DNA of 64,000 nt, from NCBI GenBank assembly GCA_963796685.1, contig CAWCMR010000005.1, positions 224,001-288,000 of the forward strand. The letters run 5' to 3'. Under the pieces are notes generated by a model. It was not told the origin of the DNA, did not search any database, and saw nothing but the letters and a program-made list of their open reading frames with translations. A program made the position numbers and the translations under genes. Within the stretch, counting starts at the first letter, position 1, and the number at the start of each line of letters is the position of its first letter. Of this stretch, positions 7,003 through 26,319 are shown one piece after another. Origin of the DNA: an uncultured delta proteobacterium. GTDB lineage: Bacteria > Myxococcota_A > Polyangia > Fen-1088.

Positions 7003-7287
7003 TCACTTGTGATTCATCGCCCGCCGAATTGCCGATCCTGCCGTGAGGACAAGTCCGGGCAACGACCCGAAATCCAAAAGCAACGGTAAGTACCAAATCC
7101 CATTCACCATCCCAAGCGGCGTTACGAAGCACGCTGCAACACCGAAGAGGCCTCCGAAGAGGGGTATCCAGGATCTATGGTGGTTTCGATGTCGAAGGTT
7201 ATCGATCACAAACCAAGCATTTCCACCTGCAATGGCCGCGAACGCGGCCAGCAGAATCGCGGCTGTGACCCAACGAATAACCAGCAA
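7003..7287 (-). CDS. Small multi-TM membrane protein, probable immunity protein of the upstream Rhs toxin
   Basis: 94 aa with about three hydrophobic segments; starts 8 bp after the Rhs stop on the same strand; low GC like the Rhs tip. Confidence 0.65.
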   Translation of the reverse strand: MLVIRWVTAAILLAAFAAIAGGNAWFVIDNLRHRNHHRSWIPLFGGLFGVAACFVTPLGMVNGIWYLPLLLDFGSLPGLVLTAGSAIRRAMNHK

Positions 7288-7295
7288 ACCAATCC

Positions 7296-10200
7296 TTATG
7301 GGAAGTACATTCTTTGCCCAAGCATAGCTTTGAACCAGTCGGTAAGAACAAACTCCTGCGGCATTTGGAGGGATGACAATGGAACTGTGTAGCTTTGACC
7401 ACTACTGAATGGGGCAAACATGTTTCCCATTCCCGGTTGCCACTTGCCAGACAAAACATAGTTGACAGCTGTCTTGCCGCCCGTCATGACCCAATCGCCT
7501 GCCTTCAGCCCCTCACTTCCCCAGCGCGAGACAAGGACAAGACGATCAGAGTTTGCCGCAACAACGGCTCCAGTACTACCACCGACGAGTCCCACTTCAG
7601 GTGCAGTTAGACCCAACCCCTCCAATAGACCCGGCGCCGCTGCAACACCAGCAATTCCCACGAGGTCAACGGCAGCTCCCACTGCCGCCCCACGAAGTAA
7701 ACCACTCTGGTACTCCGGCGTCCGTTGCATGGCGTAGTCCGGAAAACAATTGTCCATCGCACACGCGATATCTGGTCTCCTGAGCTTTCCAAGGGACATG
7801 CCCGCTTCATCATCAGGGGCAAGAACCTCGGACAAGTCTCCTCCTCCTCCCCCGCCCCCCTGCTGTGTTGCCTGGTCAACAGGGTTTGTGTGGCTGAAAG
7901 CCATAGACAGGGCGGCGGCGACCATGCCGTTGGCGGCACCTATGACTACGTTGTCGCCGAGGCTGCCGCCGGTGATGGGCGTCATAACCGCTGCCGCGAG
8001 GCCGCCAGCAATAGTGCCTCCCAATAGCTGACCGATGGGGTTACCGCCACCGATCTCCGCGCCGAAGTTCCCGAATGCGTACCCTGTGCCGAAGGCAAAG
8101 GCGCTTGCAGCGATGGTCGAGTCCCATGGGGCACCGGATTCGATCGCCGCGGAGGTGGTAACGGCCGCTAGCGCCATCGCGGCGTAAGTGCACCCGGCCC
8201 CCGAGGTGCCGATGCACACGGTGAGGACGATGAGGGGGCCGAATATCTGCCCGACCCCGGCCAACCCTTCCAACTGGTCTGACCAGAAATTGAACCCCGT
8301 CGGATCCGTGTACCGCAGAGGGTTATCCGCGGCGTAGCTGTAGCGGTTGTAGCTCTGCAGATCTGACGCGAACTGGACGTTAGGGTCGGGCGAAAGAAAA
8401 CGACCGACCGTTGGGTCGTAGATACGCCCGTTCATGTTCACGAGCCCCAGGCTAGGGATCGTTTCCTGGTCGGTAAAACCCCGATTCCCCGCTGGCGAGG
8501 CGAAGGTCGGCGGGTCGGCAACCTGGCCACTTGGGCTGCGGATCGCGCCCCAAGGGTCGTAACCGATCATACTGGCGCCGGGGCCGTCGGCAGGGGCGCT
8601 CGTGACGTGGCCATGTTCGTCGCTCGCCGCCGTCACGGAGCCGATGTGGTCGAAGTGGTGGTACTCGGTCTTGGGTGTTGTCGGGGTCGAAGAATCCTCG
8701 GTTACCACCTGGATGGCAAACGCGCTCCCACCGTGCGCCGCGCCCGCATAGATGAAGTGCGAGTGCTCGACGGTTGCGCCACGCGTCTTGCGCTCGTATA
8801 TGCTCTTGCCCGTAGCCCCAAGGCCCACGTACACCGTGCGCGACAGCGTGCTGTTGCCCGAGCTCCCGAGCGCCCCGTCCCCCGTGCCTACCGCCTGCAC
8901 CACCCGCAACCCATCCGCGCCGTAAATGAAGTCCGCTGTCTTTGTCTCGCTCCCTGTTCCACTGGTTAGCCGCGTCGCTTTGTTGGCCGCGTTCCACTCC
9001 ACCGTGCGGTCACCCACACTTAGCAGGTTTCCGTTCGCGTCGTAATTGTAGGTAGGGCCGTCGTCTATCTGGCAAACTGCGTGGGGGCCCGCATCGCGCG
9101 CTCCCGCCAGGCATCCCGTCCCGTACTTGTAACTCCTGCCTGCCTTGGTTTGCAGGTTCCCGAGTTCATCGTACGTGTAGCTTTCCGGGTCGTAGCCTTG
9201 CGCTGGGACCTGCACCGTAGCACTGAGCAAACGGTCAAGCGAGTCATAGCCGAAGGTCTCGCTCGCGGCTAAGCCGTTTGCGCCGTCCGTGCGCTGGCGC
9301 GCACGCAGGTTTCCCGCCTCGTCAAAGGCATACCCCCACTTCTGGATCACGTTGTCGCCGTCCGCATGTGCCGTGCTCGTCCTGCCGAGCAGCCACCCGG
9401 TCGCGTCGTTGCGCACTGACGCAGTCTCCACCCCGTTCCCTAACACCTCGTCAGTCACCTGTCCCGCCGCGTTCATCGCCGTCGCCTCCCACATCACCGC
9501 ACCGGTGGCGTCGTTCGCAACGTAATGCAGGTATCCGGCCTTTGTGTACACGTACTTCACTGCGAATCGATTGCCCTTGGCCTCAGGATAGCGCAAAAGA
9601 ATCGGACGGCCGAAACGATCATAGCCGTACGTCGAGCGAAACGTGCTGCCATCCGCGCAATCGGTTACCTCGTCCACGTCGCCAAACCCCGTGTAGCGGT
9701 ATGAACGTCCGGCCTGTTTCTCGCCAGCCCCTGGCGCCGGCGCAAACTCTAGCTGGCACGCACCCGCGAGTCGCGAGTCGCTCGGGCTCACCATTGCCGC
9801 GAGCTTTCCGATGCCATGCGGGGCGGCGTCGTAGATCCACCGCGCGGTTCCGCTGTCGTCGTCGCGCTGGACCACCCGCCCCAACGCGTCGTACGTCATG
9901 TAGCTTGGCCTGACTTTGCCGTCGGTCTGAACCACCAGATCGCTGAAGCTGTTGTACTGATAGCCCCAGTCACCAAGGTCCGGATCGTGGGTCGCCTGCT
10001 TGCGGCCACGAGCGTCGTATGTAATATGCACGGCATTGCTCGTGTCCGCGTCCGAGGCGCACACGTCGGTCGGCGACGCAGTGTAAGCCAGGTTGCCGTC
10101 GGCATCATACGCAAACGAAATGGTGACCCCGTTCGCATCGGTAACCGAGGAGATCTTCCCGAGAGCATTCTTGGTTTCGGAGCGCGTCCGCGACTCGCCG

Positions 10201-13200
10201 TTTACCGTGCGTGTCGTCGTTATCGTGGAGCGGTCATACGTTGTATGGGTCGTCGTGGATTGCTCCTGGTTTCCCGGTGCGCCCGTCGCCGTGCCGTCGA
10301 GCACCCCGAGGTCCTGGATCACGGAGCTCACCCGCCCGAGCGAATCGTAGAGACTGATCGTTACGGGGGCCGCCGCCTCCACACTCAAATCGGACGATGT
10401 CGATAGGAACGGCTTTGTCGTCCAGAAAACGCGGCCAAAATTATCGTACAATGTCAGCGCCTTTACGTAGTGGTTGTCAAATGCGCGCGATAAGGTCATC
10501 GTAGTCCGTCCGAGCGCGTCCGTATAGGTCCAGGTGGGGCTTCCTGTGGGTGGCGTCGTGGCGGTTACGACCTTGATCGTGCCCGTAGCTGCGTCGGCAG
10601 GCGACAAGTGCTGGATTCTGGTCGTGATCTGGCCCGACGATCCGCAGCGACCGATCTCAAGGGTCTGACGACCAAGGCCGTCGTACACCTTGCACGTGCT
10701 GATACCGTTCGGTCCGGTCTGCTGCAACAACTTGCCGAACCGCCAGTCGTAGGCCGTCAGTTCGACATGGCCCGCAGCATTGGTCGTCTTGACCGGGTAG
10801 CGGCCAGCTCCATAGGAGAGGCTATCGAAGAGGCCCGTACCGGGCGGAACTGCAAAATCCACCGGATCGTAGCTGATCTGAGTGATCCGATAGGGCAGAT
10901 CGCTCGATCCCGTCGCGCCCGGATCTCCGCAGGACTCGAAATCACTCGCACAGATCGTCGTCCTGACCACGTTCCCGAACCGATCGTATGCGTAAGCGGT
11001 GTGCAGCTCGATGGGCGCTCCAGCCCCCGGCTCGACAGTGGTCTTGAGTAACCCGAGCGTTCCTACCATGACGCCCTCGTTCACGGGCGACGCGAACTGA
11101 TTCACCTGGCCATACTCGAACTTCGTTGTGTGCGTGATAGGTATGGCGAGGCAGTCCTGAGGATAAACCTTCTGGGTCGTTACAGTCGACAGAGTCACCT
11201 TCCCAAGCCGCTCCTCTGGGCTATCGGGATCGCCATAGGCATTCACGATCGTCTTCTGGTATACGTCTTCGCCACTCCCAGTCATCACCGTCGTCGTGAT
11301 CGGGTTTCCCTGCTTGTCGTGCGTGAACGTACTGCTGACTGAGACCGACGGAGCTAGCGACTGGCCCGAGCTTCCTCCTTGCCCATTGTTCAGGGTGGTC
11401 GAGGAAAGGAGGTATTTGTAGTCTATTACGGTCGTGGGGCGTACAAACCGCGTCCTGCCTGTGCTCGCGAATGGATCATCTCCCGTCGCCTGTGGCGTAC
11501 AGCTATTGCCCGTCCCAGGTATCGCATCGCAATACTCGGTAGTGGTCAGGGAGACCAATGCGAGTTCGTTTCGACTCGATGAATCGACGAGATAGCGCGT
11601 TACCTCTAACGGCATCCCAGTATAGGGGAAAGCCTGCAAGTATTGCGTCTTGGTCTCGATGCGCGTGCGGTGGCCGGCTGGCAAACTCCGATCCTCGGGC
11701 CCGGTCACGATGATAGTGCTGAAACCTTGTGGCCCGCGACCGGACGGGCTTGCGCGCAGGTCGCGGTACTCGTAGTCGGTGGTCGCAGTTCCGCCGATGC
11801 CGTCGTCCAGGGCAAGCGAGGCGACCACACGCAGCGGGGTTGTCATGAACGATGTGCCGGGCGCAGGCGGCGGTGGCTGCTGGTCGGACGTGGAGTCGTG
11901 GTAGGTCGGATGACCAGGGCGAGCGGCGTCGCTCTGCGCGTCGGCCGTGGTGATCACCTTGTAGGTTGGTACCGTCTTCCTCGCTAGGCCGTTCGGGAAG
12001 CCCACGATCACCGGCGACCGGAAGGCGTTCCGCCACGACATGGTTGTACTCGCGAGATCTGTCACACCGTCACCATCGAGATCGATGAACGTGGTGCTGA
12101 TATCGCCGGAGAGTCGATTGCCCTTGGGAACACGCGGAACCGGTGCCGGGATGGTGCCCTGCGAATCCTTCGTGCCCAGCGGATCCGTCCACGATGTGGA
12201 CCCGTCAAGGGTGATGAAGGTTTTCCCCGTGTTGAAGAAAACACGGCCTTGCTTGGGTCCCGGGTCCTCGGGAATACTATCAAGCGACATCTTGCGCTGA
12301 ACCAGATCCGCAAGGCCGTCACCGTTGATGTCGACGGGCATGAAGGCATGGTCTTCGACCCTGATGTTGATGTCGTTGCTCTGCGGCGTGAAGTACTGGA
12401 GGCGCTCGGCCCAGGATGACGCGTACTGTGCCGGCTCGTAGCCAGAGCCGGTCGCAAGCGCAATTCTCTCTATGAATGGGATCGACCACGTACCAACTGG
12501 ACACCCCGCCAAGTTCGGCTCTCCCTGCTGCCTACAGCCAAACTGAAGGACATCGTAGAGCCCGTCCCCGTCGAAGTCGGCCTTCGTCTCCATGCCATTG
12601 GGGTAATGGCCGGGGGACAATCCAAGGTCGAAGCTGACCCAGACCGTGCCGTTAGGAGAGACCTTGCCGGTATTTAGGTACGTCTTGCCCTCCGCCGGCG
12701 TGTGGTATTTGCCGACAAGATCGGGCAGGCCATCACGATTCACGTCGAGCAGATCGTAGTCGCTGATAGGAGTGACGCCGCCGTACCTGTCTGAGGCATC
12801 TTCCCACGGAGGGGAAGGGTTTGGCGGGAGCAGAACGCCCTTGTTGATGAGAACCTTCATCGAGCCTGTGGACATCGAGACGATATCAGCTCGGCCGTCT
12901 CCATCCATGTCGATGAGCGCACCATTGCCAGCAGTGAGTTGCACGTGGCTGGCCCAATCGGGCACGGACGGAACGAATGGTATGGCCTGCAACCACATCC
13001 CCTCAGTCCTGATTCGATTCAGCACGACAGTAGGCTGAGCAATTCCCTGGCCGCTGATGTGCATTGCGTCGAGCAAGCCATCGCCGTCCAGGTCCGCGAA
13101 AGCGGTGTTGCCCGGATTTGGATCGTCAACAGAATACCTCCAGACAATTCCCGGCAAGGTCCAGGGCCGTGGTGCCTGTTCGAAGGATGTGCCGGTGTTC

Positions 13201-16200
13201 CGCCATGCGTACGAAGCACTGTCGAGCTGCGCCGACACCAGGTCCAGCCTCCCATCGCCGTCGAGGTCCATAAACCACGTACCCGGAGTGAGAGCATGCG
13301 GCAGCGTGTACCCCGGAGCCTCCACCCAGTCATAGCCGCCACCGTCCCAATCGAAACTCAGCGGCTCGGCGCAGTCGCCTTCGTCAGGGCAGTAGGTGAT
13401 CGACTGTAAGCGGCTCGGGAGCATCTTATCATCTACCGTCGGTGTGGTCGCCGGCCGCCCGTAGTCGAGTTTGTAGACGCCGAGGTCAGTGATGATCCTC
13501 GTGAGCCTCCGATTCCGAGATAGGATCTCCGAAGAGAGCCGGGTAGTGCGGATGTCGGGACGGAGCTCGTACCCAAACTTGACGGACTGGAATGTCGGTA
13601 CCGCGGCGGCATCGTCGTCGGCGGCGGATCCCGGAAGACGCCCCGTGTACGAGATTTGGGACACAATGATGCCACTCGTGCGAAAGTCCTTCTGGTCATT
13701 GTTGTAATGAATCTCGTAGTAGTTGCCCCAGACGTCCACCACCTTCTGGAGCAGCCAGATCCCAGTCGTCCAGTATTGGGGATGGCCGCCCACCATCTGT
13801 ACCCGGGTGGTGTCGTCCTTGCCGTAGTACCTCGTCTCACCGCCCTTCGTGACTACGGTAAACATCGACTCCTCTGCGGATAACGAAGATAGTGTGATCT
13901 CACTGAAGTCGCCGAACTCGGGCTCGTAACGGCGCCCAGTGCCGTCCTGCTTCGCCCCGCGGTCGAACAGACGTTTGCCATCCAGGCAAATGCCGTCATC
14001 GGCGGGTGAGCTGCTCAGCGTCACCGGCTGGGCGAACCCGTCTTCGAAACGAGTCTTCGGGCAGCGATGGATCATCGACAAGCCAGTAAGGTCCCAGCCC
14101 TGACCCGCGATCCCATTTGCGCCCTGGCTCGAGTAGACGAGAGCCAGGTTCGGCACCATTCCGGCGATCCCAGGCGGTAGCGCAATCGGGACCTTGTACA
14201 TGGCGGCTCCGCTCGGGCTGACGGACAACTCGCCGTTCACTGTGCCGGGAAACGCCGAAAGCCCTGCAGTCGGGTCCGGTGCCTCACCAGTGCCGGTGCC
14301 GGTGCCAGTGCCCGTCGACGTGACCGTCGCCGTGCTCGTATCAGTGCTGGTGTCGGTCGTGGTCGCGGTGCCGGTGGCGGTGCTCGTGCTGGTGCTGGTG
14401 TCGGTACTTGTGCACGTACGGGGACCATTGCCCTTGCACACGCCGCTCTCGCAGATATCATCCGTCGTGCACGCGTTCCCATCGTCGCAACTCACGCCAT
14501 CGTCCTCGGTCGGGTTGTTGCAGAGGCCCGTGGTGGTATCGCATGTACCAACACCATGGCACTGGTCGGCCGCGGAGCACTGGATGGTGCGGCCGGCGTC
14601 GGGGACGCAGGAGCCGTTCTGGCAGGTATCGCCCCACGTGCAGGCGCTGCCGTCGGCGCACACGGTTCCGTTGTAGTACTTGGGGTTGGCGCAGTTGACG
14701 GAGCCGGCGCAGCCCATGCACTTGTAGACTTGGTCGGCGACCTCTTTGCTGGCATTGCCCCAGGTGTTGAGGCCGGGGCGGTTCACGCCGCACAAGTCGT
14801 CTGGGCCGCCGCAGGTCTCGGGGCTGCATCCGTGGGCTGCGTAACAGTCCAGATAGGCGCCGCAGCCGGCGCGGTCGCTCTGCACGCCTGCCTCGTAGGT
14901 GCAAAACTCTCCGCACTGGGTGTTGGCCCAGCCTTGCACGCAGGCGTTGGTGGCGGGGGCACTCACGCGAAAGTCGTCGGATTCGAAGGATGCCCCCACG
15001 CTGCCCACGCCTGCCGAGCCGCTGGTACACGAGCTATCCGTTTGGGTGAGAAGCTGCGTGCCGTTGACGAAGGCTTTCAGCGACGTGCCCTGCATGTCCA
15101 GCTTCACATCGTACCAGGTGCCGGCGCTGATGCCGCCAGGCACGGCCACCGGGGTGCCAAGGGTGCTACTGACGCCGGCGACGCGCTTGCCAATCAGCAC
15201 TTTCCCGTCTCCGCGCAGGCCGACGTAGTAGCCGCAGTCCGCGTTCCAGGTGGCGTCGTAGCGGCCCCACAGGGACACCAGCGCGCTGCTCGACGAAAAG
15301 CTGAGCGGCTTGAGGTTCGCCTCGACGGTCGAGTCCATCCACGCCACCCCGCCCTGGGCTTGCGAGATGTAGAGCTGAGACGCGGTGGCGTCGTTCTGGC
15401 GATAGGCCTTGCTGCCGTCGAGCACTACGCTGAAGTTCTGCGCTGCGCCCTGGCGCACGTTCCAAGCACTGCCGTTGCCGGTCTCGAAGTTGTCGCAGAA
15501 CGCCCACGTGCCCACACACGCATTGGTCAAGGTGACGGTGCCGGTCGCCGTCTGGGTGCCCGTCACCGTGGTCGGGACCGTCGTGGTCACCGTGTTGGTC
15601 ACCGTGCCGGTCGGGTGGTAGGTCCACGACTGCGTCCCATTCCCGGTGTTCGAGCCCGTTGCCGTGAGGGTCTTGGTGCCCGTGCCGGCGTAGGTGTGGG
15701 TGCCGACTCCCGTCGTGGGGTTGGTCGAGTTGGCGGTCACCGTGACCGTCACCGCCGGCATGCCCGTCGTGACTCCCGAGACGGTCACGCTGCCGGTGAC
15801 CGTCTTGGTCTCGGTCCCGTTGTAGGGGTTCGTGACGGTGTTCGTGGCGATGGTGCTCTTGGTGCCGGCGCTGATGCTGGTCGTGCTGGCGGTGGCGGTC
15901 TTGTTGTTCGTGGCCGTCGCGGTTCCGGTCCTGGTCCAAGAATAGTAGTAGACATACGCCGTATCCGTGGCCGTCGCCGTCGCCGAAACCGGATAGTAGT
16001 GGCTCGCGTCGGTCTGCACCGAGGTCAAGGTTCCGGTGCCAGTCACCGTCGTCGTCCCCGTCGCCGACTGCGTGTGGGTCGTGCTGATCGTGGTGGTGCC
16101 TGTGGCCGTGATGGTGGGGGGAACACCGGAATCGGGAGCGCCGCCGTCGGCGGGCGGCGTCTGGTCTTTGATTCGCGCTTCGCGCGAACCGGTTGCCAGG

Positions 16201-16343
16201 CCGGCCCCAGCCGACTCGGACATGGCGGGCGCTGGTGTGGTCCCGGTCGAATTGGGCTGCTCGCCTTGTTGGCCGCAGCCCCAGAAGGCTGTTGCCGCCA
16301 ACCAAACCAGAATAGAGTGCCGCGTTTGCCCGAATGTTTTCAT
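7296..16343 (-). CDS. Giant lipoprotein-anchored Rhs/YD toxin: lipobox, Thr-rich stalk, concanavalin/LamG-like domain, Cys-rich repeats, SpvB-like, FG-GAP repeats, YD repeats, Rhs core, C-terminal toxin
   Basis: WLAATAFWGC lipobox; GELSVSPSGAAMYKVPIALPPG...LALVYSSQGANGIAGQGW (SpvB-like); repeated DLDGDG; YD repeats; MNGRIYDPTVGRFLSPDP and NPLRYTDPTG Rhs core. Confidence 0.92.
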   Translation of the reverse strand: MKTFGQTRHSILVWLAATAFWGCGQQGEQPNSTGTTPAPAMSESAGAGLATGSREARIKDQTPPADGGAPDSGVPPTITATGTTTISTTHTQSATGTTTVTGTGTLTSVQTDASHYYPVSATATATDTAYVYYYSWTRTGTATATNNKTATASTTSISAGTKSTIATNTVTNPYNGTETKTVTGSVTVSGVTTGMPAVTVTVTANSTNPTTGVGTHTYAGTGTKTLTATGSNTGNGTQSWTYHPTGTVTNTVTTTVPTTVTGTQTATGTVTLTNACVGTWAFCDNFETGNGSAWNVRQGAAQNFSVVLDGSKAYRQNDATASQLYISQAQGGVAWMDSTVEANLKPLSFSSSSALVSLWGRYDATWNADCGYYVGLRGDGKVLIGKRVAGVSSTLGTPVAVPGGISAGTWYDVKLDMQGTSLKAFVNGTQLLTQTDSSCTSGSAGVGSVGASFESDDFRVSAPATNACVQGWANTQCGEFCTYEAGVQSDRAGCGAYLDCYAAHGCSPETCGGPDDLCGVNRPGLNTWGNASKEVADQVYKCMGCAGSVNCANPKYYNGTVCADGSACTWGDTCQNGSCVPDAGRTIQCSAADQCHGVGTCDTTTGLCNNPTEDDGVSCDDGNACTTDDICESGVCKGNGPRTCTSTDTSTSTSTATGTATTTDTSTDTSTATVTSTGTGTGTGTGEAPDPTAGLSAFPGTVNGELSVSPSGAAMYKVPIALPPGIAGMVPNLALVYSSQGANGIAGQGWDLTGLSMIHRCPKTRFEDGFAQPVTLSSSPADDGICLDGKRLFDRGAKQDGTGRRYEPEFGDFSEITLSSLSAEESMFTVVTKGGETRYYGKDDTTRVQMVGGHPQYWTTGIWLLQKVVDVWGNYYEIHYNNDQKDFRTSGIIVSQISYTGRLPGSAADDDAAAVPTFQSVKFGYELRPDIRTTRLSSEILSRNRRLTRIITDLGVYKLDYGRPATTPTVDDKMLPSRLQSITYCPDEGDCAEPLSFDWDGGGYDWVEAPGYTLPHALTPGTWFMDLDGDGRLDLVSAQLDSASYAWRNTGTSFEQAPRPWTLPGIVWRYSVDDPNPGNTAFADLDGDGLLDAMHISGQGIAQPTVVLNRIRTEGMWLQAIPFVPSVPDWASHVQLTAGNGALIDMDGDGRADIVSMSTGSMKVLINKGVLLPPNPSPPWEDASDRYGGVTPISDYDLLDVNRDGLPDLVGKYHTPAEGKTYLNTGKVSPNGTVWVSFDLGLSPGHYPNGMETKADFDGDGLYDVLQFGCRQQGEPNLAGCPVGTWSIPFIERIALATGSGYEPAQYASSWAERLQYFTPQSNDINIRVEDHAFMPVDINGDGLADLVQRKMSLDSIPEDPGPKQGRVFFNTGKTFITLDGSTSWTDPLGTKDSQGTIPAPVPRVPKGNRLSGDISTTFIDLDGDGVTDLASTTMSWRNAFRSPVIVGFPNGLARKTVPTYKVITTADAQSDAARPGHPTYHDSTSDQQPPPPAPGTSFMTTPLRVVASLALDDGIGGTATTDYEYRDLRASPSGRGPQGFSTIIVTGPEDRSLPAGHRTRIETKTQYLQAFPYTGMPLEVTRYLVDSSSRNELALVSLTTTEYCDAIPGTGNSCTPQATGDDPFASTGRTRFVRPTTVIDYKYLLSSTTLNNGQGGSSGQSLAPSVSVSSTFTHDKQGNPITTTVMTGSGEDVYQKTIVNAYGDPDSPEERLGKVTLSTVTTQKVYPQDCLAIPITHTTKFEYGQVNQFASPVNEGVMVGTLGLLKTTVEPGAGAPIELHTAYAYDRFGNVVRTTICASDFESCGDPGATGSSDLPYRITQISYDPVDFAVPPGTGLFDSLSYGAGRYPVKTTNAAGHVELTAYDWRFGKLLQQTGPNGISTCKVYDGLGRQTLEIGRCGSSGQITTRIQHLSPADAATGTIKVVTATTPPTGSPTWTYTDALGRTTMTLSRAFDNHYVKALTLYDNFGRVFWTTKPFLSTSSDLSVEAAAPVTISLYDSLGRVSSVIQDLGVLDGTATGAPGNQEQSTTTHTTYDRSTITTTRTVNGESRTRSETKNALGKISSVTDANGVTISFAYDADGNLAYTASPTDVCASDADTSNAVHITYDARGRKQATHDPDLGDWGYQYNSFSDLVVQTDGKVRPSYMTYDALGRVVQRDDDSGTARWIYDAAPHGIGKLAAMVSPSDSRLAGACQLEFAPAPGAGEKQAGRSYRYTGFGDVDEVTDCADGSTFRSTYGYDRFGRPILLRYPEAKGNRFAVKYVYTKAGYLHYVANDATGAVMWEATAMNAAGQVTDEVLGNGVETASVRNDATGWLLGRTSTAHADGDNVIQKWGYAFDEAGNLRARQRTDGANGLAASETFGYDSLDRLLSATVQVPAQGYDPESYTYDELGNLQTKAGRSYKYGTGCLAGARDAGPHAVCQIDDGPTYNYDANGNLLSVGDRTVEWNAANKATRLTSGTGSETKTADFIYGADGLRVVQAVGTGDGALGSSGNSTLSRTVYVGLGATGKSIYERKTRGATVEHSHFIYAGAAHGGSAFAIQVVTEDSSTPTTPKTEYHHFDHIGSVTAASDEHGHVTSAPADGPGASMIGYDPWGAIRSPSGQVADPPTFASPAGNRGFTDQETIPSLGLVNMNGRIYDPTVGRFLSPDPNVQFASDLQSYNRYSYAADNPLRYTDPTGFNFWSDQLEGLAGVGQIFGPLIVLTVCIGTSGAGCTYAAMALAAVTTSAAIESGAPWDSTIAASAFAFGTGYAFGNFGAEIGGGNPIGQLLGGTIAGGLAAAVMTPITGGSLGDNVVIGAANGMVAAALSMAFSHTNPVDQATQQGGGGGGGDLSEVLAPDDEAGMSLGKLRRPDIACAMDNCFPDYAMQRTPEYQSGLLRGAAVGAAVDLVGIAGVAAAPGLLEGLGLTAPEVGLVGGSTGAVVAANSDRLVLVSRWGSEGLKAGDWVMTGGKTAVNYVLSGKWQPGMGNMFAPFSSGQSYTVPLSSLQMPQEFVLTDWFKAMLGQRMYFP

Positions 16344-16382
16344 GGAGCCTCTCGTTGGGGTCTCGATGTCGGCCGGTCATTC

Positions 16383-16398
16383 AGCAAAATTGGTGCCA
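16383..16398 (-). promoter_or_regulatory. Sigma54 (-24/-12) promoter upstream of the Rhs gene
   Basis: Minus strand reads TGGCACCAATTTTGCT, matching TGGCAC-N5-TTGCW with exact spacing, about 40 bp upstream of the Rhs ATG. Confidence 0.75.
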
Positions 16399-16530
16399 CG
16401 GGTCATGCGCGTGCTCGCCGATATGATTTCAAATAGTTGCGCCCGGCCTGCCTCGCATTCGGTCGACCTGGAAAGCGGCAGTCATACGTTCCCAGGGTGT
16501 CGAGTCATATGACAGAGAGGAGGTGCCGGC

Positions 16531-16713
16531 TCACGCAGTGCCGACGTGCCGGCACCTTTCCTTCCCGGTGAGCAGCACCACGTCGAGCCGTTGAACGCGA
16601 AACGCATCGACCCCGAATTTGGCGAGGCCCCACGCAATCGCGTCCTCTGGGACGATGAAGAGCGCTGCCGGCTGCCCGCTCTGGTCCGGTACGATGGCGT
16701 AAAGGCGCATCAT
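16531..16713 (-). CDS. Small hypothetical protein (60 aa)
   Basis: AGAGGAGA RBS 7 nt before ATG; globular-looking sequence (LYAIVPD...PAALF...AIAWGLAKFG.DAFRVQ). Confidence 0.65.
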   Translation of the reverse strand: MMRLYAIVPDQSGQPAALFIVPEDAIAWGLAKFGVDAFRVQRLDVVLLTGKERCRHVGTA

Positions 16714-16940
16714 GATGTGTTCTCCTCTGCTGATTTTTCCCAGGTGGTTGCGTCAGCAAGCAAAGCAATGCCCGAGCCCAACGCGGCTGCCCACGCACCG
16801 GCGCGAGGCGCGCGCTCAGTCCTGAATCGCAGGCGGTCTGAACGTACCCAGGCGGCGGCACACGGCTGGCCCGTCGTCGAGTCCTATGACTCGCCCCGAA
16901 CAGAGGCCGAGTCATAGTGGCCAGGGGGCGTCGATAGTGT

Positions 16941-17035
16941 TCGGTCACGGCCTCGGCCACGGGACGGCTACGACCAAGGCGACAGGAGTCGTGGCCGTGG
17001 TCGTGGCCGTGGCCGACCTTCGTCGTCACGGCCAA
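16941..17035. repeat. CACGGC/GCCGTG-type hexamer repeat tract upstream of the four-helix-bundle gene
   Basis: CCACGGGACGGCTACGACCAAGGCGAC followed by GTCGTGGCCGTGGTCGTGGCCGTGGCCG (opposite orientations). Confidence 0.7.
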
Positions 17036-17069
17036 GCAACTTTTTCCTTTGTCTCGCCGAAACTCATAC

Positions 17070-17423
17070 ATGTTCGGCTTCCAGAAACTCGATGTGTATC
17101 GTTGCGCGGTGACCTTCCTCGGCGTGTCTTCCTCGCTCGCCGAGCGGGTTCCGCGCGGTCATGGTGACCTTGCAGACCAGCTTCGTCGGGCCGCGCTCTC
17201 GGTTCCGCTCAACGTGGCCGAGGGAAGCGGCAAGGGCACGATGAAGGACCGTGATGCCCGCCGGTTCTATGCCATCGCAAGGGGCTCGGCCCTCGAGTGT
17301 GCGGCCATCGTGGACGCCCTGGAGACTTTGCGATTCGTGCCGGCCGACGAGGCAGATCGAACGCGCGAGCTGCTGGAACGCATCGTCTCGATGCTCACGC
17401 GCATGGCTGGGATCAGGGAGTAA
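17070..17423 (+). CDS. Four-helix-bundle protein (23S rRNA intervening-sequence protein / Avd-like family)
   Basis: FQKLDVY...LADQLRRAALSVPLNVAEGSG...FYAIARGSALEC family signature. Confidence 0.9.
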   Translation: MFGFQKLDVYRCAVTFLGVSSSLAERVPRGHGDLADQLRRAALSVPLNVAEGSGKGTMKDRDARRFYAIARGSALECAAIVDALETLRFVPADEADRTRELLERIVSMLTRMAGIRE

Positions 17424-17435
17424 CGTCAAAAGTGT

Positions 17436-17636
17436 CCGGCCACGGCCACGGGACGGCGGCGACCAAGGCGACCTGCGCGCGCGGCAGGACGTAGGCTGGA
17501 GCGTAGTCGTGGTAGTCAAGAATGTCCGGCCACGGCCACGGGGACGTCTACGACCACGGCGACCTTCGGGGCCGAAGGCAAGGGTCGTGGCCATGGTCGT
17601 GGCCGTGGTCGTCACCGTGGCCGTAGTCGTGGCCGG
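17436..17636. repeat. Hexamer repeat tract and two about 40-bp direct repeats downstream of the four-helix-bundle gene
   Basis: TGTCCGGCCACGGCCACGGG...CGACCA(A/C)GGCGACCT at about 17433 and 17523, then an inverted GTCGTGGCC... tract at 17584-17635. Confidence 0.7.
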
Positions 17637-17684
17637 AGCTCATCCTCTCCGTCCGCGACCACATTGGGTTACAATCCTTGCCTC

Positions 17685-19067
<1,383 letters not shown>

Positions 19068-19094
19068 GCACCATCTGCACGGGGTCCGTCGACG

Positions 19095-22000
19095 TCAGCC
19101 ATGCGCCGTGTGCTGGCGGGCGAGCTCGAGGATGCGGCGATGTTCGGGGATGCGGGTGAGAAAGGACTCGCGCATGGCAGGGTCGTCGATGGTTTGGGCG
19201 CGGGCGTGGAGCCATTGCGCGGCGGCGGTCACCGCTGCTTGCGCGGCTGGCTGGTCCCCGGTGGCGATCAGGCACTCGGCGAGCTCCAAGCGAATGGTGG
19301 CCTCGCCGTCGTCTACAAAGCCGAGACGATCGAGCTGAGCATGTGCCTCGCGAGCGTTGGGGAGCGCTTCGTCCAGGCGACCTTGGGCAACAAGGGCGCG
19401 AGCCAGAAGGGCGAGCGCGAAGGGACGGGCGGAGGGCACTGGATCCCACGTCGTCATGGCCGCGCGAGCGAATTGCTCGGCACGTGGGTAGTCGCCCGCC
19501 AGGAACTCGGTTACCGAGAGATACGCCTCGGCAAACCCCTGAAATCGTCGATCGTTTTGAGCGCTGGTCACGGCTACAGCCTGCTCGCCAACTGCGCGTG
19601 CCTCGTCAAGCGATCCCTCGTACGCCAGGATGTTCGTCAAGGCCTGAAGACAACCTCCAAGCAGGTGCTTCATGTCCATCCTCTTGGCGGTGTTCAAGAC
19701 TTGACGCATGCGCGACTCGGCCTCTTCCAGTAGGCCGAGCTCGATGAGCGTCACTCCCAGGCTTCCAAGTGATTGGCACGCATCTCGTCGAACGCCTAAG
19801 CTCTCGAAGTGATCCGCGACGCGTCTCTGAAGTGCCACTGTCTCAGCAAGATTGCCTCTACCACGCAAGCCAAACACTCTCGATTGCATTGCTTTGCCAA
19901 CAAGGCGTGGCTCCAAGCATTCTCGTGATTCTTCCAGAAGGGCAAGGGTTCGCTCGCGCACGTCGTTGTCGCCACCAAGCGCGAGGTAAGCCGTGCCAAT
20001 CACCACGCACGTAAGCCAGGCATTCAGCAACTCAGGCTCCGCCGGTCGTTCGAGGCCCCGGAATAGCGCCGCAATCTCCTCATACTTGGCCTGCGGCCCA
20101 AGCGCATCGAAAAGCGCGCTCAGCGCACGCAATCGAATCCGGGCGTCGCTGGAAAGGAGTGCCTGCCGGCCGGCCAACTCTGCCTCTCTGTACTCGCCTC
20201 GCCAATAGTGCGCCTCCGCCTCGATCACACGCATCGCGCACAAATCCTCGCCCTCCGCGCCGAGACCCGCGGCCCGCTCGACGCGCGCAATGGCCTCCAC
20301 CAAGTCATCCGCATCGAGCGCCTGCTGCGCGGCCACGGCCAGCCAGTGAATGGCCCGCGCCTTTTCTTCCGCGCGCTCGAAGTGGTCGGCCAGCACGATG
20401 CCGTCGCGCTCTCCCGCCTGCTCCAGATACTGGCCAGCAAGCAGGTGGCCCAAACGCTCTTCCTCGGCCGGTAGCATCTCGTAGGCCGCTTGGCGCAGAA
20501 GCGCGTGGCGGAATGCATACTCGCGCAGCTCGCCGGTCGACCGCGAAAAGAGGATCTCCTGCTTTTCAAGGATGTCCAGCCAGCGGTCCACGTCCTTGCG
20601 CACGTTCCCGTCGACCAGGGCCTTGACCCCCGCGGGCCGAAAGACCTGGCCAAAGACGCTACCCGCGCGCAACACCAGCTTGGCGTCCGGGCCGAAGCCG
20701 TCGAAGCGCGCCTGCACCATGGCCAGCACGGTGTCGGGCAAGTTGCTGTCGTCGCCTACCGTGCCCCCGTCGGCCACCGCGCGCAGCAATTCCTGCAGAT
20801 AGAAAGGATTCCCTTGCGCGCGTTCCACGATCCAGCGCGCGCTCGGCTCGGAAAGGTCGGCCGCCACGTGCTCGACCATGCGCTGGCTCCAGCGCGGCGA
20901 GAGGGGCGCCAGCTTGATGTGCTGCGAGTTGCGCTCGCTCCACAAGCCGGGAAAGCGCCGTTCGACCTGGGGGCGCGCAAGCGCCAGGACCATCAGTGGT
21001 TTCTCGGCCAGCACGCGCAAGGCCGCGTCCACGAGGCTCACGCTGGGCGCGTCGCCCCAGTGCAAGTCTTCCAGCACGAGTAGCACGGGATGCTGGCTGC
21101 ACACCGCCTCGATCCATTCCAGCCAGGCCATGAGCTTCTGGTCGGCCATCAGGCGCGCGTCTTTGCGGGCCGCGCGCAAGGGCAGAAGATCGTCGTCGGG
21201 GAAGGGCAAATTGGCTAGCTCGCCAAGAAACGCCACCGTCGCCGCCGTGCGCGGGCCATCCTCTTCGGGCAGAAAGCGCGCGATATGGGCGGTCAGGAGC
21301 CTCCGCTGCTCGGCCTCGGGCTCGCCGCCGGCGATCCCGGAAGCCGCCAGCAAGGCCGGACCCAACAGCGCGAACGGCGCGCTGGCGCGCATGGGATCGC
21401 CGCGGCCGACCAGAAGCTCGAAGGGGCGGCCTCGGCCTTGGATGCGCTCGCGGAATTCATGGCAAACCCGCGATTTGCCGCCGCCCGCTGGCGCCGTCAT
21501 CAGCATCACGCGCGCCGCCGGCTCCTCGCACGTCTCGATCCACAGGGTTTCCAAGAGGTCAATCTCGCGCGCGCGGCCGAAGCAGGGCATCTCTTGCCCC
21601 ATGAGGGTCCGTGGCACTTCGGGAAGTCCCTTCTCGAACAGCAAACGCGAGGCTTCGTCCGACAGCGGCTGGAGCTCGAAACGGCTTTCAATCAGGCGGG
21701 CGGTGGGGCCATCGACGTGGATCGTCCCGACCGGGGTATTGGCCAACAAACCAGCCGCCTTGACGGTGGCTTGCTGCAACGAGAGCGTGCCCCCGGACTC
21801 GGTGCGGCTGGAGCTCATGCCCAGGCTGGACTCGGGAAAGACACTATTCAGGCGCAGCGCCAGACGCGCGGCTTGCGCGCTCTGGTCCGCGGGGATGCGC
21901 AGCCCCGTGAAGGCGACGGCCGTCAGCCCATCGGCCGTGTGCTCGGCCCGCGCACCGTAGGCGGCCAGCAAGTCCCGTAGCGCCGCTTCGCGCGTCTTAC

Positions 22001-22939
22001 CGTGATCGTCTCCCAACGCTTGCGAGAGCCCGGAAATGACCAGCACCGCGGCCACACGCTGTTCGCTCGCCGAGAGCGTCCGGCTTTGCCGCGGGGACGG
22101 CAGGTCCAATCCCGCCGCCGCCAAACCCTCGGCCACCGCGGCCAGCTCGTCGGAGAGCTTTCCGGCGTCGTCCGGCCGCTGTTCGGGTTCCAGTGCCAGC
22201 ATGGGCTCCAGCAAAGCCCGCAAAGTCTGCGGCAACGCCGAATACAGCTCGGCCAGCTCTGCATCGTCCCAGGTGTCCGTCTTGCTGCCCTGGTTTCCGT
22301 GCCAGCGGGGCGGCTTGCCGGTCGCACATTCGACCAGCACACAACCCAGGGAAAAGATGTCCGCGCGCCGGTCGACCGCGTCTCCGTCGCGTGCCTGCTC
22401 GGGCGCCATGTACAGCGGCGTACCGATCGCAGTACCCGGCCGGGTCACTTGCCAATCGTCGTGCGCCCCGCGAGCAATGCCGAAGTCGAGCACCTTGACT
22501 TGGTCGAGCTCGGCCGCGGGCAAGAATAGATTGGACGGCTTGATGTCGCGGTGGACGATACCGCGCGCGTGCGCCGCAGCCAGCGCCTGCAGGACGCGGC
22601 TGCCCAGTCGAGCCGCAGCCGTGGGACCGACCGCCCCGCGCGCCAGTCGATCGGCCAGGGTCTCGCCATCCAGCCACTCCATGGCCAGGTAGGGCTCGCC
22701 CTGTGCGGTGGCCCCGTGGGCCACGTAGCGCACGATGGCCGGGTGCGCGAGCGCGGCCAGGGCTTCTGCTTCGCGCAGGAAGCGCTCGGTGGCCAGGGAT
22801 CCCTGGCGGTGCAGCACCTTCAGCGCCACCGGCTGGCCGTCCACCCGATCGCGGGCGCGGAACACCATCCCATACCTCCGCTGCCCACCAGCGCCTCGAC
22901 CTCGAAGCGCTCGCCGAAACGCCTCTGCTCGCTTGCCAC
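19095..22939 (-). CDS. Ser/Thr kinase - degenerate cyclase-like - STAND ATPase - TPR protein with a 1-nt frameshift near 22870 (pseudogene or sequencing error)
   Basis: GGAGGAG RBS, GTG...RFEVEALVGSGGMG in one frame continues as MVFRARD in another (ATG GG ATG); HRDIKPSN, DFG, APE; APAGGGKSR Walker A; LVLEDLHWGD Walker B; C-terminal helical repeats. Confidence 0.85.
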
Positions 22940-23142
22940 GCACACAGGCTCCTCCCGGGTCTCGTTCAGGCCTTCATCCTTCACGGTGCCTGAACGGAAG
23001 ATACACGAAAAGGCGTTCAAGTGATGGGCATCACGCTAGACGAGCGATAGCCGCAGAAGGTCGCGGCCGTGGGGCGAAAGTTTTGCAACGTCTTGCGGAA
23101 CGGTCTTGACCAATCCGCATTGTGTTGCAGAATGGTCAGGTC

Positions 23143-24264
23143 GTGGAGCGAGCACAAACGAAAGCGATCCTTCGCGATCTCGACAAGAAGATGGTTCTCT
23201 TGTCCGGTCCCCGGCAGGTGGGTAAGTCGTACCTGGCTCGCACGCTGATGGCCGGATTCCGCGCGCCACAGTACCTCAACTACGACAGTGCCCAGGACCG
23301 CGCAGTCATCAGGGCCGAGTCCTGGCGGGGCGACACGGATCTGCTGATCCTCGACGAGCTGCACAAGCTTCCCCGCTGGAAAAGCTACCTCAAAGGAATC
23401 TACGACACGCGGGGGCCGCATCTCCGCATCCTGGTGACGGGCAGCGCCCGGCTCGAGACTTTCCGGCAATCGGGCGACAGCCTGGCTGGCCGGTATTTTC
23501 TGCACCGGCTGCTTCCGGTCTCGCCGGCCGAGGCCGGCCAGGCGGGCATCAGCGCCGGGATGGATCGTTTCCTCGATAGCGGTGGTTTTCCCGAGCCGTT
23601 CCTCTCCAATGATCCGCTGGACGTAGGGCGCTGGAGGCGGCAGTACCTGGACGGTCTGGTTCGCGAAGACATTCTCGCTTTCGACAACGTCCATGAGCTG
23701 AGGGCCATTTCCCTACTGGTCGAGCTGCTGCGCGAGCGGGTTGCGTCGCCGCTCAGCTACCAGAGCCTGGCCGAGGATCTGGGCATCGCGCCCAATACGG
23801 TCAAACGTTACGTCGAGATCCTGGAGGCGCTGTATATCGTCTTCCGCGTGCAGCCCCACACCCGCTCGATTGCGCGCTCGCTTCAGCGGCAGCCGAAGCT
23901 GTATTTCTACGACACCGGGCTGGTGAAGGGAGACGAGGGACAACGCCTGGAGAACCTGGTGGCGATGTGTCTGCAGAAGCACCTCTTCTATCTGGAGGAT
24001 CGCGACGGGAAACCGCGCTCGCTCCACTACCTGAGAACCAAGGAAGGCAAGGAGGTGGATTTCGTGACGGTCGAAAGCGGGCAGCCCCTGCTGATGGTCG
24101 AAGCCAAGGCGAGCGATCACGCCCTCACCCTCGGCTTGCGCTACTTTCGCGACCGGTACGGCATCCGCGGGGTGCAGCTCGTGGGCGATCTTCGTGTGGA
24201 GACAGAGCACGACGGGCTTTCGGTGCGCCAGGCATTCCCTTGGTTGCAGGCGTTGGAAGCGTGA
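23143..24264 (+). CDS. AAA_14 ATPase with DUF4143-type C-terminal domain
   Basis: GPRQVGKS, LILDELHK, TGSA, GGFPE, KLYFYDTG, EVDF..EAK motifs; start uncertain (23122 or 23143). Confidence 0.9.
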   Translation: MERAQTKAILRDLDKKMVLLSGPRQVGKSYLARTLMAGFRAPQYLNYDSAQDRAVIRAESWRGDTDLLILDELHKLPRWKSYLKGIYDTRGPHLRILVTGSARLETFRQSGDSLAGRYFLHRLLPVSPAEAGQAGISAGMDRFLDSGGFPEPFLSNDPLDVGRWRRQYLDGLVREDILAFDNVHELRAISLLVELLRERVASPLSYQSLAEDLGIAPNTVKRYVEILEALYIVFRVQPHTRSIARSLQRQPKLYFYDTGLVKGDEGQRLENLVAMCLQKHLFYLEDRDGKPRSLHYLRTKEGKEVDFVTVESGQPLLMVEAKASDHALTLGLRYFRDRYGIRGVQLVGDLRVETEHDGLSVRQAFPWLQALEA

Positions 24265-24339: not shown

Positions 24340-25617
24340 ATGGAAAGACGCTTGCTCAAGGAAATCCTGCTCGACCAGCGAGCGGTCTTCGACCAGAAGC
24401 GCTCGGGAACGCGCCGGGATGTCCTTCCCGAGGTGGGGCGCCACATGGGAAAGCCTCACGCCATCACCCTGACTGGGGTCCGGCGCTGTGGCAAGTCGAC
24501 CTTGTTGCGCCAGGTCGCGGAGCAGTTCCTCTCATCCGGGTACCACTACTGCCACTTCGAAGACGAGCGACTTCTCGGTTTCGAGGCCCGGGACTTCGGG
24601 CTTTTGCATGAGGTCCTCATCGAGTGCTTCGGCGAGCAGAGGGTGATGTTGCTGGACGAGGTTCAGAATGCCCCGGGGTGGGAGACCTTCGTGCGCCGCA
24701 TGCTCGAGTCGGGGCGCAAGTTCATCATCACCGGTTCCAACGCCGCGCTCCTCTCCCGCGAGCTGGGCAGCAAGCTGACCGGTCGCCATGTCACGGTCGA
24801 CCTCTTTCCATTCTCTTTCCGCGAGTACCTGCGGCACTTGGGCGTGGATGCAAACGAAGAAATGCTGCTGCAGCCCGCTGGCCGCGCCACTCTCGCGCGC
24901 CATCTGACGACGTACCGGCTGCACGGCGGGTTTCCGGAGCCGCTGATCTACGATTCTCCCGACCTTCTCACGCAACTCTACGACGACATCCTTTACCGCG
25001 ACGTAGCCACCCGTCACGACATCAAGAACACCCGCGCCCTGCGCGAGCTGGCCCTCTACTACATGAGCAACGTGGCCACGCTGGCGTCGTTCAACAAGCT
25101 GAAGGCCTCGCTGGGTTTGGGAAGCGTCACCACGGTGTCGGCGTATACGGATTTCTTGGTGCAGGCTTTCGTTCTGGCCACGGTGCCGGTGCACGATGCT
25201 TCGGTGAAGCGACGGTCGATCGCTGCCAAGAAGGTGTATGCGGTGGATACCGGGCTGGCCAACCGGGTTTCGCTCAGCTTCTCGCACAACCTGGGCGCGC
25301 TCACCGAGAACATGGTCTTCCTGGAGCTGCTCCGGCGCGGCGCCGACGTGTCGTACTACCGGACTGCGAGCGGCCGCGAGGTCGACTTCGCATGCCGGCG
25401 CGGCCGGGCTTTGTCCAAGCTCGTCCAGGTGACCCTGTCGCTTGCCGACCCGCAGGTCCGCACGCGCGAGGTGGCCGCCATGACCGAGGCACTGGAGGAG
25501 CAGGAGCTCGACGTCGGGCTGGTGCTCACCGAGAGCGATCGTGAGGACATCGTCGTGGGCAAGCGGACGATCCAGGTACGCCCGCTGGCTGGTTGGCTCT
25601 GCGACCTCGACCGCTGA
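24340..25617 (+). CDS. Second AAA_14/DUF4143 ATPase
   Basis: GVRRCGKST, LLDEVQN, ITGSNA, GGFPE, KVYAVDTG, ENMVF, EVDF motifs. Confidence 0.9.
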   Translation: MERRLLKEILLDQRAVFDQKRSGTRRDVLPEVGRHMGKPHAITLTGVRRCGKSTLLRQVAEQFLSSGYHYCHFEDERLLGFEARDFGLLHEVLIECFGEQRVMLLDEVQNAPGWETFVRRMLESGRKFIITGSNAALLSRELGSKLTGRHVTVDLFPFSFREYLRHLGVDANEEMLLQPAGRATLARHLTTYRLHGGFPEPLIYDSPDLLTQLYDDILYRDVATRHDIKNTRALRELALYYMSNVATLASFNKLKASLGLGSVTTVSAYTDFLVQAFVLATVPVHDASVKRRSIAAKKVYAVDTGLANRVSLSFSHNLGALTENMVFLELLRRGADVSYYRTASGREVDFACRRGRALSKLVQVTLSLADPQVRTREVAAMTEALEEQELDVGLVLTESDREDIVVGKRTIQVRPLAGWLCDLDR

Positions 25618-26029: not shown

Positions 26030-26293
26030 TCAGGCACGGGTGGACCGCAACGCCGCGAGCTCGTGGGCCAGCTCTTCCGGGCTTTCTTGGAAGGCGTTGA
26101 CGCCGAACTCCCCCAACCTATATAGGAACTCGACCCTGGTAATGCCAGCCAGGGCTGCCGCAGCGCCGGACGACAACTGCCCCAGCTCGTGTAGCTTCAT
26201 GGCCGCCGCAAGGCGCTCCCTGCCCTCTGCCTCGGATGGTGAAGGCCCCAGCGCCCGAAGGGTTACCTCTGGTAGCTCGATGGAAAGGGTCAC
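26030..26293 (-). CDS. UPF0175-family protein (antitoxin-like HTH), orphan
   Basis: LAAAMKLHELGQLSSGAAAALAGITRVEFLYRL signature; no PIN partner downstream. Confidence 0.8.
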   Translation of the reverse strand: MTLSIELPEVTLRALGPSPSEAEGRERLAAAMKLHELGQLSSGAAAALAGITRVEFLYRLGEFGVNAFQESPEELAHELAALRSTRA

Positions 26294-26319
26294 AAGTCCA
26301 AGTGTACCAGGTGGATTCT

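Follow-up and report, generated by a model that had tools for sequence, protein, structure and literature searches.

The subject of this analysis is a kinase-activator-promoter cassette, together with the Tc/Rhs-type toxin gene that it appears to control, in the genome of an uncultured member of the Polyangia (Myxococcota). The window, namely the whole stretch of DNA analysed, comprises 64,000 nucleotides (G000:C5:224001-288000; contig CAWCMR010000005.1 of GCA_963796685.1) of an assembly of 7.3 Mb in 26 contigs that is 88.6% complete, and all positions without a further label refer to it. The region is best explained as a portable regulatory cassette of uncultured Polyangia. A gene for a sensor-like Ser/Thr kinase and a gene for a putative activator of sigma-54 transcription converge, and two predicted pairs of enhancer and promoter lie between the activator gene and the toxin gene. 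The features are as follows.

19095..22943, minus strand: gene for a protein of 1282 aa with a Ser/Thr kinase, a cyclase-like linker, a STAND NTPase (AAA_16) and TPR repeats
17685..19067, plus strand: gene for an FHA-AAA+ activator of 460 aa with a putative C-terminal HTH, its ATG start 1287 bp from the P2 motif
~16934..17641, plus strand: genome-specific insertion of ~705 bp, absent from genome G002 according to the alignment
16884..16917: enhancer A, consisting of the inverted repeat TATGACTCG-N14-CGAGTCATA and located 113-137 bp upstream of P1
16779..16764, minus strand: P1, a weaker sigma-54-type site, GGGCTC-GGGCA-TTGCT (GGGCTCGGGCATTGCT), with 2 mismatches, 51 bp upstream of the small open reading frame (ORF)
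16531..16713, minus strand: conserved ORF of 60 aa (MMRLYAIVPDQ...), a member of an unannotated small-protein family
16480..16513: enhancer B, composed of GTCATATGACTCG and, at a distance of 23 bp, a further TATGACT, and centred ~110 bp upstream of P2
16398..16383, minus strand: P2, a perfect sigma-54 -24/-12 element, TGGCAC-CAATT-TTGCT (TGGCACCAATTTTGCT), ending 39 bp before the toxin ATG
7296..16343, minus strand: ORF of 3015 aa for a Tc(B/C)-Rhs-type polymorphic toxin, with its ATG at 16343
7003..7287, minus strand: candidate immunity gene, a hydrophobic ORF of 94 aa that begins 9 bp past the toxin stop

An earlier note on this DNA had placed a near-consensus site about 40 bp upstream of the Rhs gene, an FHA-AAA+ activator about 1.3 kb away and a convergent kinase-STAND-TPR gene ending 27 bp from the activator. 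All three are present at these distances, and the site proves to be a full match. The note had missed the unusual contact loop of the activator (GAHSQA), the 60-residue gene, the second enhancer-promoter unit and the ~705-bp insertion.

Predicted promoters and enhancers, and toxin cargo

Moving away from the activator gene, the elements follow one another in the order enhancer A, P1, 60-residue ORF, enhancer B, P2 and toxin gene. P2 agrees in full with TGGCAC-N5-TTGCW, carries its GG and GC doublets 10 nt apart and lies on the strand of the toxin gene. The window has no other exact copy of TGGCACCAATTTTGCT, and 100 shuffles yielded not a single one. Transcription from P2 is predicted to start near 16373, which would leave a leader of ~30 nt with a GAGAGG ribosome site. 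A perfect site alone is weak evidence because ~6 are expected by chance per genome, as estimated from base composition, as against 13 on both strands of the whole genome (density 8.9e-7 per strand-bp). P2 is raised above chance by its position, its strand and its conservation in relatives: it is identical in the near-identical locus of G002 (L014; G002:C16:300200-320100) and in register with the TGGCGC../TGGCCC../TGGCAC.. sites of the related loci L114, L115 and L015, the flanks of which diverge. The background for less strict sigma-54-type sites is 0.089 per 700 bp per strand at ≤2 mismatches and 0.0092 at ≤1 mismatch.

The 9-mer TATGACTCG of enhancer A has 10 copies in the genome, three of which fall in the activator-toxin intergenic region. 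TCATATGA, the core of the palindromes described below, is found three times in 7.3 Mb and GTCATATGAC only once, in enhancer B. At the position of P1, locus L114 has AGGCGCGGGCATTGCT. Outside the insertion the intergenic region is ~97% identical to that of G002, the locus as a whole being 98% identical. The insertion carries a gene for a four-helix-bundle protein of the 23S_rRNA_IVP family (17070..17423; Pfam 1.2e-18; TIGR02436), flanked by direct and inverted repeats of the (GTGGCC)n type. It looks like a small mobile cassette and shifts the activator gene ~700 bp from enhancer A.

The toxin ORF encodes a protein of Tc B/C-Rhs type, fused into one chain and preceded by a lipoprotein-like signal (..AFWGC, a motif read by eye). 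A lectin-like N-terminal domain is followed by SpvB, FG-GAP, TcdB_toxin_midN, RHS repeats, the RHS core and a variable C-terminal region, with Pfam and NCBIfam matches to RHS_repeat (7.1e-18), SpvB (2.2e-12), FG-GAP_3, TcdB_toxin_midN (8e-11), DUF6443 and the TIGR03696 RHS-associated core (2.1e-17). The core ends in ..RYTDPTGF and ~335 variable residues come after it. The toxin of G002 is 91% identical over residues 39-644, but identity falls to 38-45% past that point, a pattern that a polymorphic toxin should show. Immunity genes are usually placed directly after Rhs toxin genes. The ORF at 7003..7287, which has no Pfam, NCBIfam or PADLOC family, is a candidate for such a role because it lies downstream of the Rhs C-terminal domain and in DNA of low G+C (0.566 for 6001-8000, near the toxin 3' end). 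Tc toxin B/C components and Rhs polymorphic toxins likewise possess SpvB, FG-GAP, TcdB_toxin_midN and RHS repeats with an RHS-associated core, end in a variable C-terminal domain and are followed by a small gene. Unlike Tc B/C components, the protein of the window fuses B-like and C-like parts in one lipoprotein-type chain with a lectin-like N-terminal domain. No TcA-like gene was seen, and no search was aimed at one. Such a cargo, accompanied by a putative immunity gene, would suit predation or antagonism between bacteria. A gene of the SseB family (PF07179, PF14581; 6155-6979, plus strand) converges on the toxin and its candidate immunity gene.

Recurrence of the arrangement in related loci

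Seven of 88 other genomes of the order, spanning two genera, have an orthologue of the activator (61-98% identity), and one more lies on a metagenome contig (L114), the sole true locus among the 598 FHA-part pattern matches listed. The patchy spread fits an accessory element. The comparison set hence consists of nine loci, the window locus and eight relatives. A search of contigs from named genomes with the whole activator gave no orthologue among the matches listed: these comprised 80 unrelated activators, the loci of which were reused solely as a control set for loop motifs. The records of homologues bear the name 'sigma 54-interacting transcriptional regulator [Polyangia bacterium]'.

The kinase-STAND gene is the convergent neighbour of the activator gene in eight of the nine loci. 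Upstream of the activator gene, a palindrome with a TCATATGA core is present in 7/8 loci with enough upstream DNA, in the forms CGAGTCATATGACTCG (L115, L116 and L117), GTCGAATCATATGATTCGAC (L015) and GATTGTCATATGACAATC (L016); in L114 four copies of TATGACTC take its place. All seven testable loci have an outward-pointing sigma-54-type site with ≤2 mismatches, five of them with ≤1 mismatch; besides P2 of the window, L015 supplies a second perfect -24/-12 site, with a different spacer, TGGCACAGCAGTTGCT. In five loci palindrome and site are 98-124 bp apart, in one the distance is 225 bp. When the P2 regions of six loci are aligned, only the letters TGGC.C-N5-TTGC stay in register and the flanks differ. 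A binomial estimate for at least four of six loci having a ≤1-mismatch site is 1e-7, the loci being treated as independent. From the DNA and its relatives one can read directly which parts are present, in which order, how well they are kept and how enhancers and promoters are spaced.

What lies behind P2 is less constant. The cargo is Tc/Rhs-like in only four of seven loci, which makes the toxin a swappable output rather than a fixed third element; elsewhere P2 precedes a GerE-type regulator (L115), a 649-aa secreted protein with DM9 repeats (L116) or an unknown protein of 252 aa (L015). With the -24/-12 letters in register while flanks and cargo vary, the regulatory part is conserved and the output exchangeable. 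On this comparative evidence the kinase-activator-enhancer-promoter arrangement is a conserved module, not a chance neighbourhood. The synteny that the earlier note had proposed as a check on its three elements therefore holds for kinase and activator and for the promoter site, and only in part for the Rhs gene. In L116 a further perfect CGAGTCATATGACTCG palindrome with a nearby half-site is located at L116:1881, 4.4 kb from the activator gene and beyond the DM9-repeat cargo, and hints at another regulated unit.

The 60-residue ORF was found in five of eight loci, between the two enhancer-promoter units. A search of 1.84 billion representatives brought up 31 relatives of its protein at E≤0.001, and P9, A17, F19, A25, W28, G34 and F38 are invariant in 22 sequences. 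No family name is attached to it: the best protein-atlas score is 0.83, to hypothetical proteins only. The family has 47 matches in 25 of 89 genomes of the order. A sigma-54-type site (≤2 mismatches, ≤250 bp upstream, coding strand) precedes the ORF in 17 of 30 loci from the order, where ~1 would be expected, and an activator gene lies within the 1.5-kb flanks of nine of the 30. The genome of the window has two further copies: one (G000:C8:190575-190730, minus strand) stands directly upstream of a Ser/Thr kinase gene behind the site TGGTCCGCGAATTGCT, and the other (G000:C10:87062-87217) lies 165 bp after an FHA activator gene with a GAFSGA loop, behind TGGCATGGTGAGTGCA. The site form TGGTCCG-N4-TTGCT recurs in six other genomes. 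These kinase and activator neighbours and upstream sites mark the family as a recurrent companion of kinase/FHA-activator modules. A function as feedback modulator is a guess. Predicted-complex scores for the small protein with the activator and with the TPR region of the kinase are 0.00 and 0.00, which is not evidence either way.

The activator, the kinase and competing explanations

The activator matches FHA (PF00498, 1.1e-12), Sigma54_activat (PF00158, 2e-49) and AAA_lid_14 (2.7e-16) in Pfam. What an AAA+ domain of this family requires besides PF00158, that is Walker A and B, arginine fingers and sensor II, is all in place (Walker A GETGVGKE, Walker B LFLDEIG, RRDLLARF, NVRELEN), and these positions are invariant in 40 homologues. 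So are G55, R56, S75, H78, N98 and G99 of the FHA domain, of which we take R56, S75, H78 and N98 to be residues of the phosphothreonine pocket. At the C-terminus there is no Pfam match to HTH_8 at E≤0.001; NCBIfam alignments to PEP_resp_reg, NorR and GlrR reach the last profile positions, and the C-terminal ..VARELDRQWAVVWRW.. stretch is conserved among homologues. PADLOC assigns the activator to RtcR-type models and the kinase to the generic kinase models PD-T4-6 and mad6; models of this kind are not read here as membership of a defence system.

The sigma-54 contact (L1) loop reads ESELFGFVRGAHSQA: GAHSQA replaces GAFTGA, and the phenylalanine of the canonical motif is missing. The GAH..A loop is shared by 108 of the 121 closest homologues, H226 being at least 90% conserved in 40 homologues. 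A back-translated pattern, ELFG-x3-GAHSxA, is present in 37 of 401 sampled genomes of the phylum and its reversed control in none, and no histidine occupies the third loop position among 79 motif matches in the 80 unrelated activator loci. On account of this loop the protein is not filed as a canonical enhancer-binding protein (EBP). Two facts are in tension here: the motif rule says that there should be no sigma-54 activation, whereas the conserved setting of the gene, with enhancers and promoters of its own, suggests a working activator. It is placed in the EBP family as a protein that probably acts like a functional EBP without being a canonical member.

The kinase protein matches Pkinase (3.2e-42), AAA_16 (5e-12), TPR_12, TPR_10 and TPR_MalT in Pfam. 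Its catalytic motifs are present (VALK, IVHRDIKPSN, DFG, YMAPE), the glycine-rich loop being uncertain, and its NTPase contains the Walker A motif APAGGGKS and LLVLEDLHW. By its domain make-up it is a STAND (NLR-like) NTPase with a predicted TPR sensor. Since relatives match only from residue 25 onwards, its start codon is uncertain. The best family match is TIGR03903 (TOMM system kinase/cyclase fusion), with 279.1 bits well below the cut-off of 705.75: this is a resemblance only, and the degenerate cyclase-like segment between kinase and NTPase fits such a sub-threshold match. A second kinase-STAND-TPR gene (KIN2; 27947-31918, minus strand), ~51% identical to the first, has no activator gene beside it; it adjoins the cassette in G002 too, and a further paralogue is found at L115:17257-19899.

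We lean towards a circuit that runs from sensor kinase through phosphothreonine and FHA domain to a variant activator on palindromes, and thence to sigma-54 promoters for a small protein and a toxin. An NLR-like kinase of the cytoplasm, built of Hanks kinase, degenerate cyclase-like linker, STAND NTPase and TPR sensor, would detect a cue, and would then either become threonine-phosphorylated or phosphorylate the activator. The FHA domain of the neighbouring activator would read the phosphothreonine, and activator dimers would assemble on the TCATATGA-core palindromes and use ATP to open sigma-54 RNA polymerase. Two promoters would be served, each ~110 bp downstream of an enhancer: P1 would drive the 60-residue protein, and P2 a variable cargo, here a lipoprotein-type Tc/Rhs toxin with a membrane immunity gene. 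Three steps of this scheme are inferred, namely the binding of the activator to the palindromes, its sigma-54 activity despite GAHSQA, and the passage of the signal from kinase to FHA domain. The earlier note had drawn a similar line from kinase to activator, sigma-54 promoter and Rhs gene. Its linked parts are indeed conserved; however, the toxin is swappable, and without the GAFTGA phenylalanine the central arrow of that circuit is less secure than had been assumed.

A number of observations weigh against the proposed circuit. The P1 sites are weak, with at least two mismatches, and no phosphatase gene was seen. The related loci are kin, and counts of loci overstate their independence. At the G002 locus both activator and kinase match in pieces and in different frames, as a result of frameshifts or assembly errors, and at L114:9770-12403 the kinase is left unmatched from residue 455 to 833 (the STAND NTPase), as though the gene held kinase and TPR alone, which could be a deletion or an assembly artefact. 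The sequencing runs that hold the stretch are four soil DNA runs from one study (shares 0.11-0.27), with no RNA run listed. The remaining difficulties concern the loop and the link to the kinase, and each lends itself to a different explanation.

The first of these holds that the activator has lost its coupling to sigma-54, like TyrR, DhaR, HupR and VpsR, and works on the palindromes as a repressor or as a sigma-70-type activator; the -24/-12 sites would then be served by another of the ~33 canonical activators or kept silent by this one. We consider it unlikely, even if the loop itself is its natural starting point. Among the activator-like genes of the genome the third loop position is F in 33/35 and H in 2/35, and with rpoN present once (PF04552, 4.4e-64) there is no special sigma-54 to explain the variant. 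An excerpt of PMC2941729, citing Zhang 2009, gives tyrosine as the sole replacement tolerated for the GAFTGA phenylalanine of PspF, and the legend to Fig. 3 of PMC3162934 reports replacements other than Y as inactive. The surveys PMC3162934 and PMC12316311, as excerpted, retain only GAFTGA-bearing proteins as activators, a rule that excludes proteins of the present kind. The literature searched contains no paper that pairs a GAH-type loop with GAFTGA, and the supplementary list of defective GAFTGA motifs in PMC3162934, which lay outside the search, may contain such a loop. Enrichment of sigma-54-type sites beside 20 phylum-wide GAHSxA loci is modest (7 against 4.1 expected, 4 within 850 bp upstream). 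Lost coupling would nevertheless leave much unaccounted for: the ATPase motifs are all intact and the histidine is conserved (108/121) rather than decayed, and the palindromes lie ~110 bp from the sigma-54-type sites across loci, not over them. There is no sigma-70-type promoter match in 16200-19300, and another activator would need binding sites of its own, none of which is conserved there.

A second explanation, improbable to a similar extent, accepts activator, enhancers and sigma-54 promoters and removes the STAND kinase as input. The FHA domain would read some other kinase or serve oligomerization, and the convergent kinase would be a separate sensor, for instance of a TOMM-like or defence pathway, that travels with the cassette. 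Convergent genes are not co-transcribed and hence form no operon, with 27 bp between the two stop codons; yet this adjacency persists in 8/9 loci down to 62% activator identity while the cargo changes. The exception, L016, keeps the activator with a different arrangement, a plain kinase gene and a separate TPR gene downstream. Hanks-kinase motifs number ~49 in 7.3 Mb, roughly one per 150 kb, and any of these kinases could feed the FHA domain; the paralogue KIN2 without an adjacent activator and the sub-threshold family match to TIGR03903 point in the same direction. Against this, a Pkinase gene lies no more than 5 kb away in 18 of the 22 clade copies that are more distant (44-62% identity): according to crude GC3-based gene calls, it is the immediate neighbour in 11, lies within that distance in a further seven and is missing in four. 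The genome also encodes outright fusions, which argue that such kinases and activators work together. One is a 1676-aa Pkinase-AAA_16-GAF-Sigma54_activat-HTH_8 protein (L169:896-5923; G000:C13), another an open frame of 1262 aa (L170:157-3942, minus strand; G000:C16) with FHA, Sigma54_activat (GAFTGA), Pkinase and Glyco_hydro_6. The invariance of the phosphothreonine-binding FHA residues likewise speaks for a kinase input.

It is highly improbable that gene types common in myxobacteria have come together here by accident and share no function: kinases (~49 motifs), activators (~42 or more matches) and Rhs genes are numerous in such genomes, and perfect -24/-12 sites are not rare, but synteny contradicts it, with order, orientation, palindromes and promoter positions conserved in eight further loci and the binomial figure given above, loci being taken as independent, pointing the same way.

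A broader form of the sensor-kinase circuit can be advanced tentatively. FHA activators with a GAHS(Q/T)A loop may be genuine sigma-54 activators that constitute the output of an NLR-like STAND kinase, the whole forming a mobile sensor-to-weapon module with a dedicated 60-residue partner and a cargo (Tc/Rhs toxin, lectin-like secreted protein or GerE regulator) exchanged between strains; we put this forward as a possibility, with less assurance than the circuit of the window itself.

Known systems, significance and genomic setting

FHA-domain enhancer-binding proteins of Myxococcus xanthus were reportedly treated by Jelsbak, Givskov and Kaiser in 2005 (PNAS). These proteins reportedly have the same FHA and sigma-54 AAA+ architecture, with an HTH that is putative in the window protein, in a kinase-rich myxobacterium, and the same logic from kinase through FHA domain to sigma-54 has been proposed for them. 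The clade of the window differs in its GAHS(Q/T)A loop and its fixed convergent partner, a STAND-type kinase, and the cassette in its palindromic enhancer, conserved small gene, interchangeable cargo and lack of a link to development. In the PpkA-Fha1 threonine-phosphorylation pathway of type VI secretion (T6SS), the FHA protein is a post-translational scaffold and the activators VasH and Sfa are separate proteins. There too a Hanks kinase, an FHA reader and sigma-54 activators control an antibacterial weapon; unlike the T6SS, the cassette has FHA domain and activator in one protein, and its weapon is a Tc/Rhs lipoprotein. To our knowledge, which here includes a literature search, no sigma-54/FHA-activator control of a Tc/Rhs toxin gene has been described.

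Fusions of the kind found at L169:896-5923 are built of the same blocks (Pkinase, AAA_16, TPR and Sigma54_activat, with an HTH that is putative in the window protein); a single polypeptide with a GAF linker holds them all and lacks an FHA domain. In the window cassette the blocks are distributed over two convergent genes, and FHA presumably provides the coupling. According to excerpts of PMC3162934 and PMC6158489, TyrR, DhaR, HupR and VpsR also have a Sigma54_activat AAA+ domain with a non-consensus GAFTGA loop; in these proteins the loop is deleted or decayed and they act at sigma-70 promoters. In the window clade, by contrast, loop length is kept, the histidine is conserved and sigma-54-type promoters stand at enhancer spacing. 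PexR of M. xanthus, as an excerpt of PMC12754779 describes it, similarly uses repeated dyad-symmetry sites upstream of sigma-54 promoters, has divergent targets and serves more than one enhancer-promoter unit; it has a metal-binding GAF sensor and canonical sigma-54 contact determinants and controls peroxide defence genes. Being of the GAF type, with an unrelated input domain in that account (PMC12754779), PexR was rejected as a relative of the activator.

The literature searched yielded no paper in which a STAND kinase and an FHA activator control Rhs. The components are of known kinds; that literature describes neither their combination nor the conserved histidine loop next to sigma-54 promoters, and it has no account of the small partner gene or of the exchangeable cargo. 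The cassette offers a compact test case for the question of whether Ser/Thr kinases drive sigma-54 transcription via FHA-type activators, a proposal made for myxobacteria twenty years ago and little tested, as well as for the indispensability of the GAFTGA phenylalanine. If the histidine loop works, phenylalanine is not required, and surveys filtered on GAFTGA (PMC3162934, PMC12316311) under-count the sigma-54 activators of Myxococcota and miss a whole class. In the circuit, an NLR-like sensor of bacteria would govern gene expression instead of a killing domain joined to it, and a Tc/Rhs antibacterial toxin would come under a dedicated signalling cassette. The analysis also brings to light a family of small proteins that is unannotated and whose genes repeatedly have sigma-54-type promoters in front of them.

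Two further features frame the cassette.

1436-5595: phage-type integrase gene and a gene for a primase-like protein of 1033 aa (CHC2 zinc finger, Toprim)
26290-27222: truncated integrase gene (arm-binding and central domains only), overlapping tRNA-Arg(CCG) at 27139-27213

The cassette probably sits on a decayed integrative island, between the integrase-primase pair and the truncated integrase. Two AAA_14/DUF4143 ATPase genes (23122-24264 and 24340-25617) have PADLOC matches (down to 5.8e-99) to PDC-S01, a candidate defence family, and give the neighbourhood the look of a defence island.

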